Virus record (IMG/VR): IMGVR_UViG_3300003323_000334
Location: 1 to 64,000 of that record
Length of the DNA: 64,000 nt
Source of the DNA: a virus
Strand: one strand, 5' to 3'
Below the pieces are notes generated by a model that was not told the origin of the DNA, ran no database searches, and was given only the letters and a program-made list of their open reading frames with translations. The position numbers and the translations under genes are program-made. This document shows, piece after piece, positions 40,708 to 46,880 of this stretch (the first letter of the stretch is position 1; every line of letters starts with the position of its first letter).

Positions 40708-40749
40708 AACAACCGGGAGCTTGAAAACTCCCGGTTGTTTCCTTTTTCC
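40708..40749 (+). terminator. rho-independent terminator
   Basis: A 12-bp perfect stem AACAACCGGGAG / CTCCCGGTTGTT with an 8-nt loop, then TCCTTTTTCC. Confidence 0.8.
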
Positions 40750-40763
40750 TACAGGAGTTTCCC

Positions 40764-41216
40764 ATGGCGATGTGTGTGTCGATCGACAAGACGTTCGAAG
40801 CGGCTCATCGTCTCCTTAATCACCCAGGCAAGTGCAGATTCTTACACGGCCACAGCTACAACCTCACCGTTACAATCGGCCGCAAAGACGGCGGCGTTGG
40901 TCCCAGACAAATGGTGATCGACTTCGGAAACGCCAAAGAAATTATAAACGCCGTAGTAGACGGCGGATGGGACCACAATACGATTCTGAACGCGATCGAT
41001 CCCTTGGCAAAACGGCCTGATCTGATCGGTCGAGATCCGATGATCGTTTCGTGTACCGGACACGATCAAGATCCTACAGCCGAAATGATCGCTTTGCGCC
41101 TCAAAGAAGACATTGAGTCGGCTTTGAACGGTCGTTTTCCGAACGCGTTCGAAATCCTCAACGTCGTCGTCAAAGAGACCGACAAGTGCTCGGCCGAATG
41201 GTACCCTGATCGTTAA
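40764..41216 (+). CDS. queD: 6-carboxy-5,6,7,8-tetrahydropterin synthase
   Basis: 150 aa. FEAAHRLLNHPGKCRFLHGHSYNLTVTI carries the T-fold C-x3-HGH signature of QueD/PTPS. Confidence 0.85.
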   Translation: MAMCVSIDKTFEAAHRLLNHPGKCRFLHGHSYNLTVTIGRKDGGVGPRQMVIDFGNAKEIINAVVDGGWDHNTILNAIDPLAKRPDLIGRDPMIVSCTGHDQDPTAEMIALRLKEDIESALNGRFPNAFEILNVVVKETDKCSAEWYPDR

Positions 41217-41228
41217 CAGGAGAGTGCG

Positions 41229-41954
41229 ATGTATCCGCTCATCATGCGACCGAACACGCAACACCCGAAAGGTCCGCTGTACCGACAAGACGGTCAACTC
41301 GACGTGGTCGAGGTGTTCGAAACGATTCAAGGCGAAGGTCCGTACACCGGTCGTCCCGCAGTGTTCGTTCGCCTCGAAGGATGCAACCTGAAGTGTCCTG
41401 GGTGTGACACCGACTACACCAGTAACCGTGAGTTGTATTCTCCGACCATGCTGTTGACTATGATCAACGACAGGTTCGCTCGGCGCAAAGAAATCGATGG
41501 TGACAACACGCTGATCGTCCTGACTGGCGGCGAACCACTCAGGCAGAACATCGCGCCATTCGTTCGTGACGCCAAGCACGATGGTTGGAACATTCAGCTG
41601 GAGACGAACGGAACACTCTTCAACGAAGACCTGCCCGTGCTCGGGATGGACATCGTGTGCAGTCCTAAAACACCTAACGTCCGAGACGAACTGAAGGATC
41701 ACATCTGCTGCCTGAAGTACGTCATCGAGGCCGGCTTCGTTAGCGAGGAAGATGGGTTGCCGATCAGTGTTATGGGTCTGAACGTCACTCCTGCTCGCCC
41801 GTGGCCAACGTTCAAAGGCGAGGTCATCGTTCAACCTTTCGATGTGGGGAACGCTCGCGCCAACATTAATAACTTGGACGCCGCGGTAGAAAGCTGTCTG
41901 AAGTTCGGGTACACACTCGGGGTTCAGGTACACAAGATTGCTCGGCTGAAGTGA
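41229..41954 (+). CDS. queE: 7-carboxy-7-deazaguanine synthase (radical SAM)
   Basis: FETIQGEGPYTGRPAVFVRLEGCNLKCPGCDTDY is the characteristic QueE N-terminus and cluster motif. Confidence 0.85.
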   Translation: MYPLIMRPNTQHPKGPLYRQDGQLDVVEVFETIQGEGPYTGRPAVFVRLEGCNLKCPGCDTDYTSNRELYSPTMLLTMINDRFARRKEIDGDNTLIVLTGGEPLRQNIAPFVRDAKHDGWNIQLETNGTLFNEDLPVLGMDIVCSPKTPNVRDELKDHICCLKYVIEAGFVSEEDGLPISVMGLNVTPARPWPTFKGEVIVQPFDVGNARANINNLDAAVESCLKFGYTLGVQVHKIARLK

Positions 41955-42155
41955 CTCGCTCAGAATCGATATTTTCGTTATGACCGAATGCTTCCGCGAA
42001 CCGAGGTGAACGATGCAGTGGATTCGTGGTCCGCCGGATGAACTAACGTCTGAAATGGGCGGCGATCGTGTGTATCGGCCATTAGACCTTCTTTGAGCGG
42101 TCGCTCATACGGAGGAAACTCGTGAGGAGAAACACCATGTAAAGTAATAAATCAA

Positions 42156-42190
42156 ACCTAGAGAGCTATTGGTAAGCTAGCTCTCTAGGT
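42156..42190 (+). other. 12-bp perfect stem-loop in the queE-folE spacer
   Basis: ACCTAGAGAGCT (42156-42167) pairs with AGCTCTCTAGGT (42179-42190) around an 11-nt loop. GTTATATAT follows, with no clean U-run. Confidence 0.6.
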
Positions 42191-42199
42191 GTTATATAT

Positions 42200-42296
42200 G
42201 GCAGGTGGAGCTAGCTCCAGCTAGGTGCTGTTATCGTACTCGGCACACTTAACTGGAGTCGGCAGCCCTCATGGGGTTGAAATCCCCAGCCTGCCC
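42200..42296 (+). other. tRNA-like three-way-junction RNA element (not a canonical tRNA)
   Basis: Acceptor-like 7-bp stem GGCAGGT (42200-42206) with GCCTGCC (42289-42295). T-arm-like TGGGG-TTGAAAT-CCCCA (42272-42288). Central long hairpin CTCCAG (42215-42220) with CTGGAG (42253-42258), enclosing GTGCTG/CGGCAC. No D-arm or 7-nt anticodon loop could be drawn. Confidence 0.35.
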
Positions 42297-42317
42297 TTCC
42301 TTTAAAAGGAGTATTTT

Positions 42318-42905
42318 ATGAAGTTCAACGCCACTGCCGTAAGCTACGCTGCTACCCAGGATTTGTTCCGAGAACTGATCAGCAGGTTCGACAACGAGCC
42401 TTCACGTCCAGGATTAAAAGATACTCCGGCTCGCTTAGAGAAAGCCTGGCAGGAAATGTTTTCAGGTTACTTCGTGACCGCCGAAAACATCGCCAAAATG
42501 CTCACCACGTTCGAAGAAGAAAAATCGGACGATATGGTGATTCAGAGGTTCATTCCGTTCAGCAGCACCTGTGAACATCATTTACTCCCATTTATGGGGC
42601 ACGCCACCATCGCGTACATTCCGGACGGACGCATCTTAGGACTGTCTAAATTCAGTAGGTTGCTAGACGTGTTCACCAAACGAATGCAGAATCAGGAACG
42701 CATTACGGTACAAGTCGCCGAAGCGTTTATGGAGCATCTGAAGCCGAAGGGTGCGGCTTGCGTTCTTACGGCGCAACACCTCTGCATGGAGTGTAGAGGT
42801 GTTAAAGTAGCAGGCGTCGAAACGACGACCTGTTGCCTGCGAGGCTGTTTCAGTTCCGAACCTACGCGATCTGAGTTCCTCAGGTTCGCAACAACGAAAG
42901 GGTAA
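42318..42905 (+). CDS. folE: GTP cyclohydrolase I
   Basis: PFSSTCEHHLLPFMGHATIAYIP, GLSKFSRLLDVFTKRMQNQERIT and TAQHLCMECRGVK are FolE type I signatures. AAGGAG RBS present. Confidence 0.9.
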   Translation: MKFNATAVSYAATQDLFRELISRFDNEPSRPGLKDTPARLEKAWQEMFSGYFVTAENIAKMLTTFEEEKSDDMVIQRFIPFSSTCEHHLLPFMGHATIAYIPDGRILGLSKFSRLLDVFTKRMQNQERITVQVAEAFMEHLKPKGAACVLTAQHLCMECRGVKVAGVETTTCCLRGCFSSEPTRSEFLRFATTKG

Positions 42906-42906
42906 C

Positions 42907-43191
42907 ATGGGCTTCAAGCAACAGCTTTTGAACTTCGAGAAGGCAAAGGTAAAAACGAAACCGCCGCAAACGCAAAAGAAAACCGAAGCAAAGCTCCCGA
43001 AAAAGGGAACACCTGAGTCCGCGTACAGAGATGGAGTGAAGGACATGGAACAACTTCGTTCCATGTTCAGCAAACGGTTTTGTAAACACCTGGTGTTCAT
43101 TCTCGGATTCTCCAGAAAAGGACCGCAGAGCGATCCGTTAATCAGGTCGTACTGTGACGGTTTTAACGACAAACTGGAGGACAAGGCGTGA
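42907..43191 (+). CDS. hypothetical basic protein
   Basis: 94 aa, 1 nt after the folE stop and overlapping the next gene (GTGA). Confidence 0.45.
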   Translation: MGFKQQLLNFEKAKVKTKPPQTQKKTEAKLPKKGTPESAYRDGVKDMEQLRSMFSKRFCKHLVFILGFSRKGPQSDPLIRSYCDGFNDKLEDKA

Positions 43192-43655
43192 CAACGCTCG
43201 AAGAATTCAATCAATGGTTTCAGACCAACAAATCGGTAGTAACGCGACGTTCTCCGTACGACGCGGCTAAACTCGCTTGGTTTGCTGCAAAGCAAACTCC
43301 TTTATTTGACGCAGGAAAATCGCCAGCAGATGTTTCGACGTTCATCATCGTTAAAACCGAGTTCGTTGGTTTTCACCGGTGGTGTGATGCGCCTGTGAAT
43401 GTGTCGTTCCTTCGCCAATTCCATCGACACGTGTTCAAAGTGGAGGTGACAATCAGAGTAGATCATCAAAATCGGGCCCTAGAGTTCTTCACCGAGCAAC
43501 AGAAAGTGGAGCTGTTCTGTCAAAAGTTTCACAACCAACATTTTGAAAAGTCCTGCGAAATGTTGGCTCAAGAAATCCTAGACAGTAATCCGGAGTATCA
43601 TTCCGTCAAGGTTAGCGAAGACGGTGAGAACGCCGGTATTGTGATTCGTAACTAA
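43188..43655 (+). CDS. divergent T-fold (QueD/PTPS-like) paralogue candidate
   Basis: 155 aa. FVGFHRWCDAPVNVSFLRQFHRHVFKVEVTIRV mirrors the F-x-A-x-H ... HGH-x-(Y/F)-x-V-x-V layout of QueD, but with HRH and no Cys four residues before it. Confidence 0.4.
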   Translation: MTTLEEFNQWFQTNKSVVTRRSPYDAAKLAWFAAKQTPLFDAGKSPADVSTFIIVKTEFVGFHRWCDAPVNVSFLRQFHRHVFKVEVTIRVDHQNRALEFFTEQQKVELFCQKFHNQHFEKSCEMLAQEILDSNPEYHSVKVSEDGENAGIVIRN

Positions 43656-43676
43656 CCTTTAACTTCTGAGTACGCC

Positions 43677-44966
43677 ATGCTCTACTACGTCCCTCTTGAG
43701 TGCTACCGTCAGCGTTACACCATGCAACTCTCAGCCCCAAAAGTCGGGTGGTTCGAGAGTAAATGGATCGAGCACAACATTCCATACGTTCGAGTCGAAC
43801 CGAGTTACGCCGCTCTCGGCGAAAACTTTCCGAACAGAATGATTAACAACGGATCGGTACTCGATGCTGTAGGACGCAGCCGATACGCCATGAGTCAAAT
43901 CGACAACCTGCTGCTGATGCTGGATCGAGGAGAAATCAAGGACTCTGACGTAATCTACTTTGACGACTTCTGGCACCCAGGTATCGAGGCGTTTAAATAC
44001 ACCTGTGACATTTTAGGTAAACGACCACGAATGTACGCCTACTGCTGGGCTCAGTCGGTCGATCAGTTCGACTTCACCAACAAGATGAAACACTGGATTC
44101 GTCTGATCGAAAAAGGATACAGCGCGATACTCGATGGGGTGTTCGTTGCGAACACAGGCCTAAAGGAGCTGCTGTACGATCACGCCGTGTGTGACAGTCT
44201 AAAAATCCATGTGGTCGGTCTACCGTTCGACACCAAAGAAGTGCTGAGTCGAATGCCGGATTCGTACCGCGAGTTCATCTTAAATCCGCAATCACAAGAC
44301 ACGCCTAGTCCTAGACTGGATCGGGTAGTGTTCTCGTCTAGATGGGACTCAGAAAAGAACCCGATATTCTTTTTGAGGCTCGCCGCACTTGCAGCACGCG
44401 ATCCGGAGATGAGTCACGTCAAGTTCGCAGTGTGTTCGTCGGCACCGGAAATGAAAAGCAACAACAGCGGGCTTTTGACCGTGCTGTTCGGAGCAACAAA
44501 GGATCTGTCGAACTTCGAACTTCACACCAATCTGTCTAAAGAGGCGTACTACAAGCTGTTGGCCGAGTCCAAAGTTCAGTTCAACTGTGCCGACCAAGAT
44601 TGGACTTCGTTCACACTGCTGGAAGCGGTTACTGCCGGATGCTATCCACTCTATCCGTACTTCAGGAGTTTTTCGGAAGTGTTCTTGAACGGGTCGAGGT
44701 TTTTGTACGAGCACAAAAACCTCGACGCGGCGTATTCGAAACTGAAACAGTCTATATTAAACCAGTACCCGTTGCCAGATTCAGGAAAGTGGTCACACGA
44801 AGAGATCATAGGTCGCATGTGGATCGCCAAACGATTCAACGCCACTTGGTACCGAATCGCCAAGCATATGGGCGTCATTCCTGAAAACTTCTCTACCACT
44901 GTAGAGCACATCACCCCACCGTACGATCGCGAGCAAGTGAAGCGTGTCGATTGGGCGCGTCTCTAG
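43677..44966 (+). CDS. GT-B fold glycosyltransferase (candidate)
   Basis: 429 aa. The C-terminal half VVFSSRWDSEKNPIFFLRLA ... FTLLEAVTAGCYPLYPYF fits the GT-B donor-binding domain and E-x7-E-type region. Confidence 0.55.
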   Translation: MLYYVPLECYRQRYTMQLSAPKVGWFESKWIEHNIPYVRVEPSYAALGENFPNRMINNGSVLDAVGRSRYAMSQIDNLLLMLDRGEIKDSDVIYFDDFWHPGIEAFKYTCDILGKRPRMYAYCWAQSVDQFDFTNKMKHWIRLIEKGYSAILDGVFVANTGLKELLYDHAVCDSLKIHVVGLPFDTKEVLSRMPDSYREFILNPQSQDTPSPRLDRVVFSSRWDSEKNPIFFLRLAALAARDPEMSHVKFAVCSSAPEMKSNNSGLLTVLFGATKDLSNFELHTNLSKEAYYKLLAESKVQFNCADQDWTSFTLLEAVTAGCYPLYPYFRSFSEVFLNGSRFLYEHKNLDAAYSKLKQSILNQYPLPDSGKWSHEEIIGRMWIAKRFNATWYRIAKHMGVIPENFSTTVEHITPPYDREQVKRVDWARL

Positions 44967-45001
44967 AATCGCTTTACGTCGCGTTTTAAGCGTGTTCGTT
45001 T

Positions 45002-45044
45002 CGCGATCGGGCGCCGAGTAGCGTTGCGCCCGATCGCGTGTTTT
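45002..45044 (+). terminator. rho-independent terminator after the glycosyltransferase gene
   Basis: A 13-bp perfect stem CGCGATCGGGCGC / GCGCCCGATCGCG with an 11-nt loop, then TGTTTT. Confidence 0.7.
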
Positions 45045-45130
45045 AGACGCGTTTAATCGCATTTGGCGCGTGCGCGAAAGCGACGCGCAATAATAAACGA
45101 AACTATACATCCTTGTGCGAGACTTCTACC

Positions 45131-45871
45131 ATGACCTCAACCTATACCACGCTCACGCATCCTATCCTTCAAAACACACTCCAAACCAACTCGATCAATT
45201 TCGGCATCACGACCAGATGTACCATGATTTGCCCGAAATGCTCGATCGACGTTCCTGGAATTAAGAACAGGAAAGAAGCTCAAGACGCCTCAATCTCTAC
45301 GATTCATTGGACGGCATCTGTGCTGACCGCTCGCGGTACATTCCAGCGAGTTCACATCACAGGAGGCGAACCGACGATTCACCATGCTTTCGGTTTGATG
45401 ACACCAGAGTTCAAAGACTGGTTCAAGGCTGAGTACCTTACTCTTGAAACCAACGGCGCTCTAGTCTTGAAGCACATCGAGGTCATCAAAAAGCACTTCG
45501 ACCTGGTGTTCATAACGCATTACGTTAAGGGCGCAATTTACCCGGACAATTTCGACAACACCGAAATCATCAAACGAGCTAAACAAGAACTCGGCGACAA
45601 GTTGATAACTGAGCCGCCGGTCCGACATGACCTAGAGCACATTAAATTGTCCTTGAGAACCGAGGATCAGAAGCGAGCGGAACACGTCGCCTGTTCCAAG
45701 TTTTACGAACCGGGATTACCGTGTGCGTGGTACGACGGATATTTGTACCCGTGCTGCGTCAGTTTCGGAATCGATCGCGACAGGTACAAAGTGCCGGTAA
45801 CCGAAGACTGGCGAACAGTGATTCAAGACCAGAACAAAGGGTGCAGCAATTGCCTCTATCGGGGAACCTAA
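45131..45871 (+). CDS. radical SAM enzyme with Cys-rich C-terminal (SPASM/twitch-like) region
   Basis: ATG 45131; the track start at 45113 is TTG. C-x3-C-x2-C motif in GITTRCTMICPKCS, SAM-binding ITGGEPT, and C-terminal CAWYDGYLYPCC ... GCSNC. Confidence 0.7.
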   Translation: MTSTYTTLTHPILQNTLQTNSINFGITTRCTMICPKCSIDVPGIKNRKEAQDASISTIHWTASVLTARGTFQRVHITGGEPTIHHAFGLMTPEFKDWFKAEYLTLETNGALVLKHIEVIKKHFDLVFITHYVKGAIYPDNFDNTEIIKRAKQELGDKLITEPPVRHDLEHIKLSLRTEDQKRAEHVACSKFYEPGLPCAWYDGYLYPCCVSFGIDRDRYKVPVTEDWRTVIQDQNKGCSNCLYRGT

Positions 45872-45872
45872 A

Positions 45873-46880
45873 ATGAGCGGTGCTAATCTAGGACACAAAC
45901 GTAAAGGCCGAGCCAAGACCATTGTGTCTCTAGACGGCCTGCCTCGCAGGTGCCGGAGCTTCATGCCTGATTCCGGTGCCCACAGTTTGTTCAACCTACA
46001 TTGCTTCGAAACCGCTAAACAAAACGGTAAAGAAGTCCGAGTTTTCAAAAAACCGAACGAACGGTATAAATGGTACTCACCTGACGGTAACAAGCTGTCT
46101 AAAGAGTTCCGTGCGTATCTGGACAAATACGTCGGCTTCATCGACAAGTACGGTAAAGGAATAGACCACTACGTTACAGTGGACGCGATCTACAATCCGG
46201 AGATATCATGGAAGAGTCTCAAGTACCTAGAGTCGTGGGGTCTGAAACCGATTCCAGTAATCCACCACAGAACCTCGATGCGCTGGATCGAAAAGCATTT
46301 GGACTCTGGTTACAACTACATCGGGCTTGGAGGTCTCGGGCAGCAAAGCACCAAGAACACTTACACGATATGGGCGGATCAGGTGTTCGACCGAATATGT
46401 CAGGGGAGCAAACGTCTGCCGTGTGTTAAGACTCACGGCTTTGCGATGACGAGCTATTCTCTAATACTCCGCTACCCTTGGTGGAGCGTTGACAGTTCTT
46501 CCGTGTTCAAATGTGCCGGTAACGGTAGCATCTTCGTTCCACACAAGAGACAAGGCTCTTTCACTTTCGGTGAGGAGCCTTACGTCATGGGTGTTAGTCA
46601 CAGGTCTAGTGCAAAGCAGTCCGACAAGCGACACTACGACAACCTAACAAAAGGTGAAAAGGCGATCGTCGCCGAATGGCTGAAGTCGATCGACATGATC
46701 CTAGGAACTGTGTCAGAAGACGGAGAAATGGACGAGTACGGAGTGTACTCGTCTTACAACGCCAGAGTGGTCGCTAATCTGAGGTTTTTCGAACGCTTTT
46801 TGGACTGGCTACCAAAATGGCCTTGGTCGTTTAAAATTCGACCGAAACGCGGCTTCTTGAAATGGGAGGATTTGACGTGA
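45873..46880 (+). CDS. dpdA: DpdA-type DNA (guanine) transglycosylase, TGT superfamily
   Basis: 335 aa. FMPDSGAHSLF, YIGLGGLG, KTHGFAMTS and WWSVDSSS match the phage DpdA/TGT motif series. It starts 1 nt after the radical-SAM gene stop. Confidence 0.8.
   Translation: MSGANLGHKRKGRAKTIVSLDGLPRRCRSFMPDSGAHSLFNLHCFETAKQNGKEVRVFKKPNERYKWYSPDGNKLSKEFRAYLDKYVGFIDKYGKGIDHYVTVDAIYNPEISWKSLKYLESWGLKPIPVIHHRTSMRWIEKHLDSGYNYIGLGGLGQQSTKNTYTIWADQVFDRICQGSKRLPCVKTHGFAMTSYSLILRYPWWSVDSSSVFKCAGNGSIFVPHKRQGSFTFGEEPYVMGVSHRSSAKQSDKRHYDNLTKGEKAIVAEWLKSIDMILGTVSEDGEMDEYGVYSSYNARVVANLRFFERFLDWLPKWPWSFKIRPKRGFLKWEDLT

Follow-up and report, generated by a model that had tools for sequence, protein, structure and literature searches.

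A candidate irregular tRNA-like gene in the gap between queE and folE of a phage 7-deazaguanine cluster

Results

Genome Setting and Features of the Locus

The window of this study, a stretch of 64,000 nucleotides, comprises the initial 64 kb of a complete phage genome of 80,131 bp with direct terminal repeats. The phage encodes a terminase, a portal protein, a primase, helicases, a DNA polymerase, and a ribonucleotide reductase, and the nearest cultured terminases share only 36–38% identity with its own. At window positions 40764–46880, we identified a 7-deazaguanine cluster with queD, queE, folE, a second radical-SAM gene, and a TGT/DpdA-like gene, together with a conserved 429-aa gene without a Pfam domain, while QueC, Thg1, and TROVE were not found in the complete phage genome. 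Directly 5' of queD (40708–40750), a strong terminator-like hairpin followed by a T run was noticed, so that transcription of the queD-queE-folE block may depend on antitermination or on a separate promoter. The features of this block and of the gap between queE and folE are the following:

40764–41216, plus strand, queD
41229–41954, plus strand, queE, radical-SAM CDG synthase (Pfam Radical_SAM/Fer4_12; homologues named 7-carboxy-7-deazaguanine synthase), upstream boundary of the gap
41955–42012, plus strand, conserved short spacer with the RBS GAGGTG (42003–42008), equivalent to the whole spacer in the relative L116, where it lies directly before folE
42013–42096, plus strand, 27-codon ORF with a good RBS, putatively translated, starting at the position of the folE start in L116
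42111–42142, plus strand, SD-like sites (42111–42115 and 42124–42129) and a 6-codon GTG ORF (42122–42142), read from the sequence
42156–42190, plus strand, 13-bp stem-loop with A+T-rich flanks (arms 42156–42168 and 42178–42190; z −4.8)
42200–42296, plus strand, tRNA-like RNA of 97 nt (acceptor 42200–42206 with 42289–42295; C42296 at the discriminator position; CCA not encoded)
42211–42224, plus strand, candidate D-arm in the cloverleaf fold (5 Watson-Crick pairs, UCCA tetraloop, C42218 as position 19), sequestered in the rod fold
42225–42246, plus strand, 6-bp stem with a 10-nt loop at the anticodon-arm position, in both rod and cloverleaf
42272–42288, plus strand, T-arm (5 Watson-Crick pairs, loop UUGAAAU, G at position 56 (42279))
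42297–42311, plus strand, small hairpin pairing with the folE SD (42298–42302 with 42306–42310)
42318–42905, plus strand, folE, GTP cyclohydrolase I (Pfam GTP_cyclohydroI, 4e-61), downstream boundary of the gap

Composition of the Gap

The initial annotation had described the 363 nt between queE and folE as one structured leader. Gene calls at 41229–41954 and 42318–42905 confirmed the length, and the whole gap folds better than its shuffles (z −3.8), but the gap also holds small ORFs (27 and 6 codons), over which the apparent folding of 41990–42135 (z −2.6) extends, and only the first 58 nt are common to L116. In this closest relative found (FolE 69% identical), the same queE and folE genes are present without the tRNA-like element, and the queE-folE spacer of 59 nt aligns to window 41955–42012 including the RBS and the start-codon position; therefore, about 305 nt of the window gap are absent from L116. 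Judged by this alignment, the gap is made up of the short segment conserved in L116 and an apparently inserted cassette, and the claim of a single structured leader was given up. The boundary of the c. 305-nt difference appears insertion-like, and a gain in the window as well as a loss in L116 would be compatible with it. As cargo, the 27-codon ORF now occupies the old RBS and is followed by the 6-codon ORF, the 13-bp hairpin, and the tRNA-like element, after which folE has a new RBS.

Within the conserved spacer, 32 of 37 nt (86%) are identical between window 41975–42011 and L116:154–190, a non-coding segment including the RBS, compared to 25–36% at the fourfold-degenerate codon sites of the flanking genes. 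The segment shows no fold common to both phages, and neither the genome nor the viral contigs hold it a second time; it is probably a promoter or protein-binding site. A search with the 27-codon ORF gave no homologue. In the minigene-like 6-codon ORF, AGG and AGA codons stand in tandem, and an SD inside the ORF precedes an ATG-TAA start-stop; a cargo gene since lost may have left the region 42111–42142 behind, and phage L001 holds an ORF of 128 aa at the analogous place. No sigma-70 promoter or terminator was detected in a scan of the gap.

The stem-loop at 42156–42190 lies where it had been annotated, but comprises 13 bp and not 12. The 3' arm of this stem-loop nearly repeats the D-arm region 42209–42234 in direct orientation, and the D region of the tRNA-like element could pair with the 5' arm as well. 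A switch between these two pairings is not favored, as pairing with its own arm (−23.6) is preferred by 7 kcal/mol to pairing with the D region (−16.8) and the hairpin folds first.

Anatomy of the tRNA-Like Element

The acceptor-like stem, the central hairpin, and the T-arm-like hairpin reported initially are all present as described. The 7-bp acceptor stem consists of six Watson-Crick pairs and one U-G pair and forms, together with the T stem, a non-coding 12-bp branch (7/5) with 11 Watson-Crick pairs and one U-G pair; the hairpin at 42272–42288 is the only perfect T-arm of its pattern in the genome. In regard to the 3' end, the element does not stop about 20 nt before the RBS, as first thought, but 10 nt before the SD (42306–42311) and 22 nt before the ATG. 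On the 5' side, an A+U-rich leader (42191–42199) is predicted to be single-stranded next to a coaxial acceptor/T helix, so that the arrangement of an RNase P substrate is seen in the predicted fold only.

The element has the 7-bp acceptor, 5-bp T-stem, and 7-nt T-loop of a canonical tRNA, but of the invariants U8, G18-G19, C56, and R15-Y48 none is present, with G8, C18, C19, G56, and A48 found instead. Position 19 of a tRNA pairs with position 56; in the element, both are swapped (C19, G56) yet complementary, and it could therefore keep this pair in swapped form. A 5-bp anticodon stem with a 7-nt loop and U33 was not found, as the best stem leaves a loop of 10 nt. The D-arm sequence recurs within 100 nt in one direct and two inverted copies, and a direct repeat of 6 nt (42240–42245 and 42259–42264) flanks an inverted copy.

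Alternative Folds and Shuffled Controls

The three-way junction proposed initially corresponds to a rod with 42215–42220 paired to 42253–42258. At −44.0 kcal/mol, it lies within 0.4 kcal/mol of the MFE (−44.4) and stands in this respect, but its T-arm reaches a probability of only about 0.2 in the plain ensemble (acceptor about 1.0), because a small alternative hairpin competes with it under nearest-neighbour energies. A cloverleaf was calculated at −35.5 kcal/mol, i.e., 8.5 kcal/mol above the rod. Its middle part comprises a D-stem of 5 bp starting from nucleotide 12, the UCCA tetraloop, a directly abutting 6-bp stem, and a weakly structured variable region of 25 nt. A third fold, at 13 kcal/mol above the MFE, contains a 7-nt loop and places G at position 33.

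The combination of acceptor and T-arm, taken as a 7-bp stem with a 5-bp T-arm stacked on it at a tRNA-like distance, occurs once in the 80-kb genome; shuffling reproduced it in two of 20,000 spacer shuffles and one of 20 whole-genome shuffles, the pattern having been defined after the element was seen. In the same way, with a test defined post hoc, 21 of 50,000 shuffles of the middle part gave the cloverleaf layout, eight of them with C at loop position 3. Since these tests were designed after the fact, the numbers are indicative.

Searches for Homologues and Known RNA Families

BLASTn comparison of the spacer or the element with phages and plasmids resulted in chance matches or none. Pattern scans, which detect near-exact matches of the element only, gave no hit in viral contigs, 23 matches in metagenomes, none of which had a complete T-stem, and two in GTDB, both by chance, while a scan with the T-arm alone revealed 81 matches, including one real tRNA but no homologue of the element. 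Thus, there is no covariation within the element's own family. No protein relatives at ≥90% were found, and a search for short FolE fragments likewise gave none.

As had been recommended in the initial annotation, covariance models and ARAGORN in relaxed mode were run. Rfam at E 10, over 8 kb and over a 391-nt spacer (4227 families), revealed nothing relevant, and the relaxed ARAGORN mode gave hundreds of noise calls only, so this check produced no support. Neither RF00005 (tRNA) nor ARAGORN in default mode matched the element, and the same was true for RF01852 (tRNA-Sec) at E 10. We found no description of this RNA in the published literature.

The Slot before folE in Other Phages

Comparison of 85 distinct loci with queE before folE showed 35 with queC in the slot, 41 with other cargo, and 9 in which the genes follow each other directly. 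The queE-folE position is thus a variable cargo slot. Of 149 distinct folE loci from phages, those of one other phage type only (L001) had a tRNA-like element immediately before folE; as 148 of these 149 other folE genes and L116 do without it, the element is not a conserved folE leader. Eight related genomes were also scanned and revealed no element of the window type.

Phage L001 is the best full-length QueE relative (52%). Its cassette contains hairpins, a small ORF, a T-arm element, the 128-aa ORF, and an atypical tRNA-His(GUG) directly before the folE SD. This tRNA (L001:7542–7615) was detected by Rfam with 42 bits but not by ARAGORN; it has G55 and C73, and G-1 is not encoded. It belongs to the queuosine family of tRNAs and lies within a 7-deazaguanine cluster. 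The second T-arm element (L001:6895–7012), with a short acceptor-like stem, follows a 22-codon hydrophobic ORF and a TTGACA box. In L276, a variant of L001, the tRNA-like elements are identical, so that no covariation was obtained.

L005, a contig of a related phage or prophage, carries three tandem irregular tRNA-like RNAs at 2442–2767. The first one shares an identical 7-nt 5' acceptor strand with the window element. The third (2669–2767) matches the register of the window cloverleaf, with a D-stem of 5 bp at nucleotide 12, a tetraloop, and an abutting next helix, and combines UGGA in the D-loop with C56, compared to UCCA with G56 in the window; it also looks like a 9/3 allo-tRNA and shows an extra T-arm-like hairpin in the variable position. 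In addition, a genuine phage tRNA-Leu(CAA) (L216:6947–7033) has the same T-loop as the window element and likewise 19-56 swapped to C19-G56. MAFFT gave no sequence alignment of the irregular RNAs from different phages; since the compared RNAs do not align, the elbow pairing is suggested rather than proven by this likeness.

The folE SD and Riboswitch Models

The initial annotation had considered a metabolite-sensing riboswitch, though without recognizing preQ1, THF, or ZTP consensus sequences by eye. The model scans agreed with the latter at the locus, where THF-II (RF02977), preQ1-I (RF00522), and ZTP (RF01750) gave no match even at E 10; weak preQ1-I and ZTP matches lie elsewhere in the genome. 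The core of the folE SD was predicted to be paired with p >0.9 in all four contexts, i.e., with the RNA starting at 42013, 42145, 42200, or 42297, and since its pairing is unaffected by upstream context, no switch is predicted. Deletion of the element in silico left the SD closed, and no alternative fold connecting the element with the SD was obtained. In THF-II riboswitches, the RBS forms part of stem P1 (PMC11317127), whereas the folE RBS here lies outside the helices of the element. Conservation upstream of the regulated gene in relatives, as expected for a riboswitch, was not observed.

Discussion

Comparison with Known RNAs

A close likeness was found to allo-tRNAs and to the irregular tRNAs of polycistrons (Mukai et al. 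2017, PMC5389517), which share with the element the 12-bp acceptor/T branch and a 6-bp stem at the anticodon position and would, if the less stable cloverleaf forms, also share a long D-stem with a tetraloop and a long variable region. The D-stem/tetraloop plan of the cloverleaf is that of tRNA-Sec and allo-tRNAs, and polycistrons of irregular tRNAs, charged or inert, that are unused in translation are known (PMC5389517); allo-tRNA members with disrupted or alternative folds of this kind resemble the element (PMC5389517). Differences concern the branch, which is 7/5 in the element compared to 8/4 or 9/3 in allo-tRNAs and 8/5 in tRNA-Sec (read as 9/3, the element would have a G-A mismatch at pair 8), the discriminator (C73 instead of G73 or U73), the CC in the D-loop, G56 in the T-loop, the 10-nt loop, and the more stable rod. 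Unlike allo-tRNA systems, no toxin-antitoxin pair was recognized next to the element. Bacterial tRNA-Sec (RF01852) would be similar to the cloverleaf fold in D-arm architecture and in the directly abutting 6-bp stem, while the element lacks a UCA anticodon, has an acceptor of 7 bp, and did not match the model at E 10.

C4 antisense RNA of P1/P7, an RNase P substrate (cited in PMC4919922), is a non-coding RNA of phages as well and likewise carries a tRNA-like terminal helix as part of a longer transcript, but the element has no Rfam C4 match, no antisense target was identified, and its RNase P processing is a prediction. YrlA Y RNAs (PMC4201824) are tRNA mimics with a T-arm that occur in phages; their arm order is permuted, whereas that of the element is standard and the 5' GNCGAANG motif is missing, and neither a Ro60/TROVE gene, expected within a few kb but absent from the complete genome, nor an Rfam match was found. 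The THF-II riboswitch (folE motif, RF02977; PMC11317127) resembles the element in its position before folE and in a rod-like helix with internal bulges, but differs in that the RBS of folE is outside the helix, the element is closed by a tRNA-type acceptor and T-arm, it is unconserved before folE, and there was no model match. tmRNA, which is defined also by a tag reading frame and pseudoknots, was rejected, since the element has C3-G70 instead of G3-U70 and 97 nt instead of about 350 nt, and ARAGORN gave none.

Interpretation of the Element

Taken together, we favor, with a probability of roughly 0.5, the reading that 42200–42296 is a free-standing irregular tRNA-like gene carried as variable-slot cargo of the 7-deazaguanine operon, which would be excised by host enzymes and act as a non-decoding mimic or decoy. 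Of the options named initially, tRNA mimicry and a processing signal find support in the anatomy of the element and in the analogous irregular tRNA genes of related phages. The element would be co-transcribed with queE and folE, as the scan of the gap revealed no promoter or terminator. Host RNase P could then cut at G42200, and RNase Z or exonucleases could trim the RNA after C42296. Both cuts are proposed because RNase P and RNase Z read the 12-bp acceptor/T helix, which is intact in the element; for RNase P, moreover, the 7-bp acceptor is a major determinant (PMC4201824), and phage regulatory RNAs, besides mRNAs, are known substrates (PMC4919922). CCA may be added to the released RNA, which would present the top half of a tRNA and perhaps the elbow, with C19-G56 instead of G19-C56. 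Lacking an anticodon loop of 7 nt, the RNA most likely plays no part in decoding. With regard to its use, we infer that mimicry of tRNA as a decoy for tRNA-binding host proteins, e.g., tRNA-targeting toxins or defence nucleases, would be the likeliest. As a side effect, excision might create a new 5' end of the folE mRNA about 21 nt before the start codon.

Against this reading speak the predicted cost of the cloverleaf, 8.5 kcal/mol above the rod, the small hairpin modeled to compete with the T-arm, and the missing U8, G18, and G15-C48. A more elaborate version, in which the element mimics a tRNA with an inverted C19-G56 elbow and no usable anticodon, alternates between the rod and a tRNA-Sec-like cloverleaf, and through cleavage by host tRNA-processing enzymes gates folE translation and hence the supply of 7-deazaguanine precursor for phage DNA modification, appears quite improbable.

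The main rival is a decaying class II or allo-type tRNA gene, functionless now, in which local duplications of the D-arm sequence, both inverted and direct, would have produced the rod and the upstream hairpin; we take this seriously, though on balance it seems unlikely. It would fit an element that is a singleton across the databases searched, absent from L116, and surrounded by ORF-like remnants, with one direct and two inverted D-arm copies within 100 nt, a 6-nt direct repeat around an inverted copy, and pseudogene-like allo-tRNAs as known precedents (PMC5389517). Random decay, however, would not favor what is seen here: a middle part with no similarity left to tRNA models next to a fully paired acceptor/T branch (12 of 12 pairs), an unbroken D-stem, and positions 19 and 56 that are still complementary. 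Distinctly less probable is a signal in cis, by which a tRNA-like fold lets host RNase P or RNase Z cut the operon RNA and so sets folE mRNA stability or translation apart from queE. Here, the end of the element 10 nt before the folE SD, the tRNA-His of L001 that also abuts the folE SD, the SD-pairing hairpin directly 3' of the element, and the processing of mRNAs and phage regulatory RNAs by RNase P (PMC4919922) have to be set against L116 and the 148 of 149 other folE loci that manage without such an element, its single occurrence in the genome, which gives no punctuation pattern, and an SD that does not open upon its removal in silico.

The remaining explanations have little in their favor. 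A translating aberrant tRNA, i.e., a missense, nonsense, or frameshift suppressor, is very unlikely: activity in E. coli is known for allo-tRNAs with a similar D-arm, and both the third fold with its 7-nt loop and an Asn-like CU-GUU-AU stretch occur in the region, but 10 nt remain in the loop of the best stem, the 7-nt-loop fold combines its 13 kcal/mol above the MFE with G33, and the Asn-like loop would have only three of five stem pairs. For control of folE by a ligand-sensing riboswitch (preQ0/CDG, THF/pterin, ZTP, or guanine), the chances are slimmer still, and this option of the initial annotation was not supported. The element does precede folE, where THF-II riboswitches occur (PMC11317127), and a hairpin sequestering the SD is present, but this hairpin is predicted to form independently of context, no fold links it to the element, none of the 4227 families matched, including THF-II, preQ1-I, and ZTP at E 10, the RBS is not inside a stem equivalent to P1 of THF-II, and the element is unconserved before folE. 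Least probable of all seems a site at the DNA level (part of an operator array, promoter, or origin) with palindromes mimicking RNA helices. A perfect 14-bp palindrome (42206–42219), the genome's only two copies of an 8-bp palindrome, five CTAG sites in 70 bp, and A+T-rich flanks might point to it; however, it leaves unexplained the acceptor/T-arm geometry and U-G pairs that work only in plus-strand RNA, no sigma-70 promoter or terminator was found, and CTAG, with 174 sites, is not rare in the genome, which also argues against a CTAG-cluster origin.

If the preferred reading of a free-standing irregular tRNA-like gene holds, the element adds a case to the poorly described phage tRNA-like genes that are missed by tRNA finders and Rfam. 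The swapped 19-56 pair and the missing anticodon would offer a compact test of the requirements of RNase P, RNase Z, the CCA enzyme, and tRNA-targeting defence nucleases, and the locus illustrates that long structured gaps before phage metabolic genes can be cargo and not riboswitches. As a singleton known from sequence, the element is of modest value at present.

Further Observations

Additional irregular tRNA-like genes were noticed in other phages. Upstream of queE in L038 (2691–2871), two irregular tRNAs lie in tandem, one with a greatly enlarged anticodon loop and the other with a 9-bp D-stem, a tetraloop, and a CAU loop. Two more, neither called by ARAGORN, were identified on the minus strand, namely L250:8881–8998 in the related genome G007, with 118 nt and extra arms, and L258:17629–17705 in the related genome G009. 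In the window itself, the 429-aa gene is followed 3' by a C+G-rich spacer (44967–45112) with many CGCG-type inverted repeats, and a similar tract sits at the same place in L116. Finally, some 6-bp palindromes are strongly avoided across the whole genome (GTCGAC was found once compared to about 30 expected), which suggests host restriction pressure despite the modification cluster.
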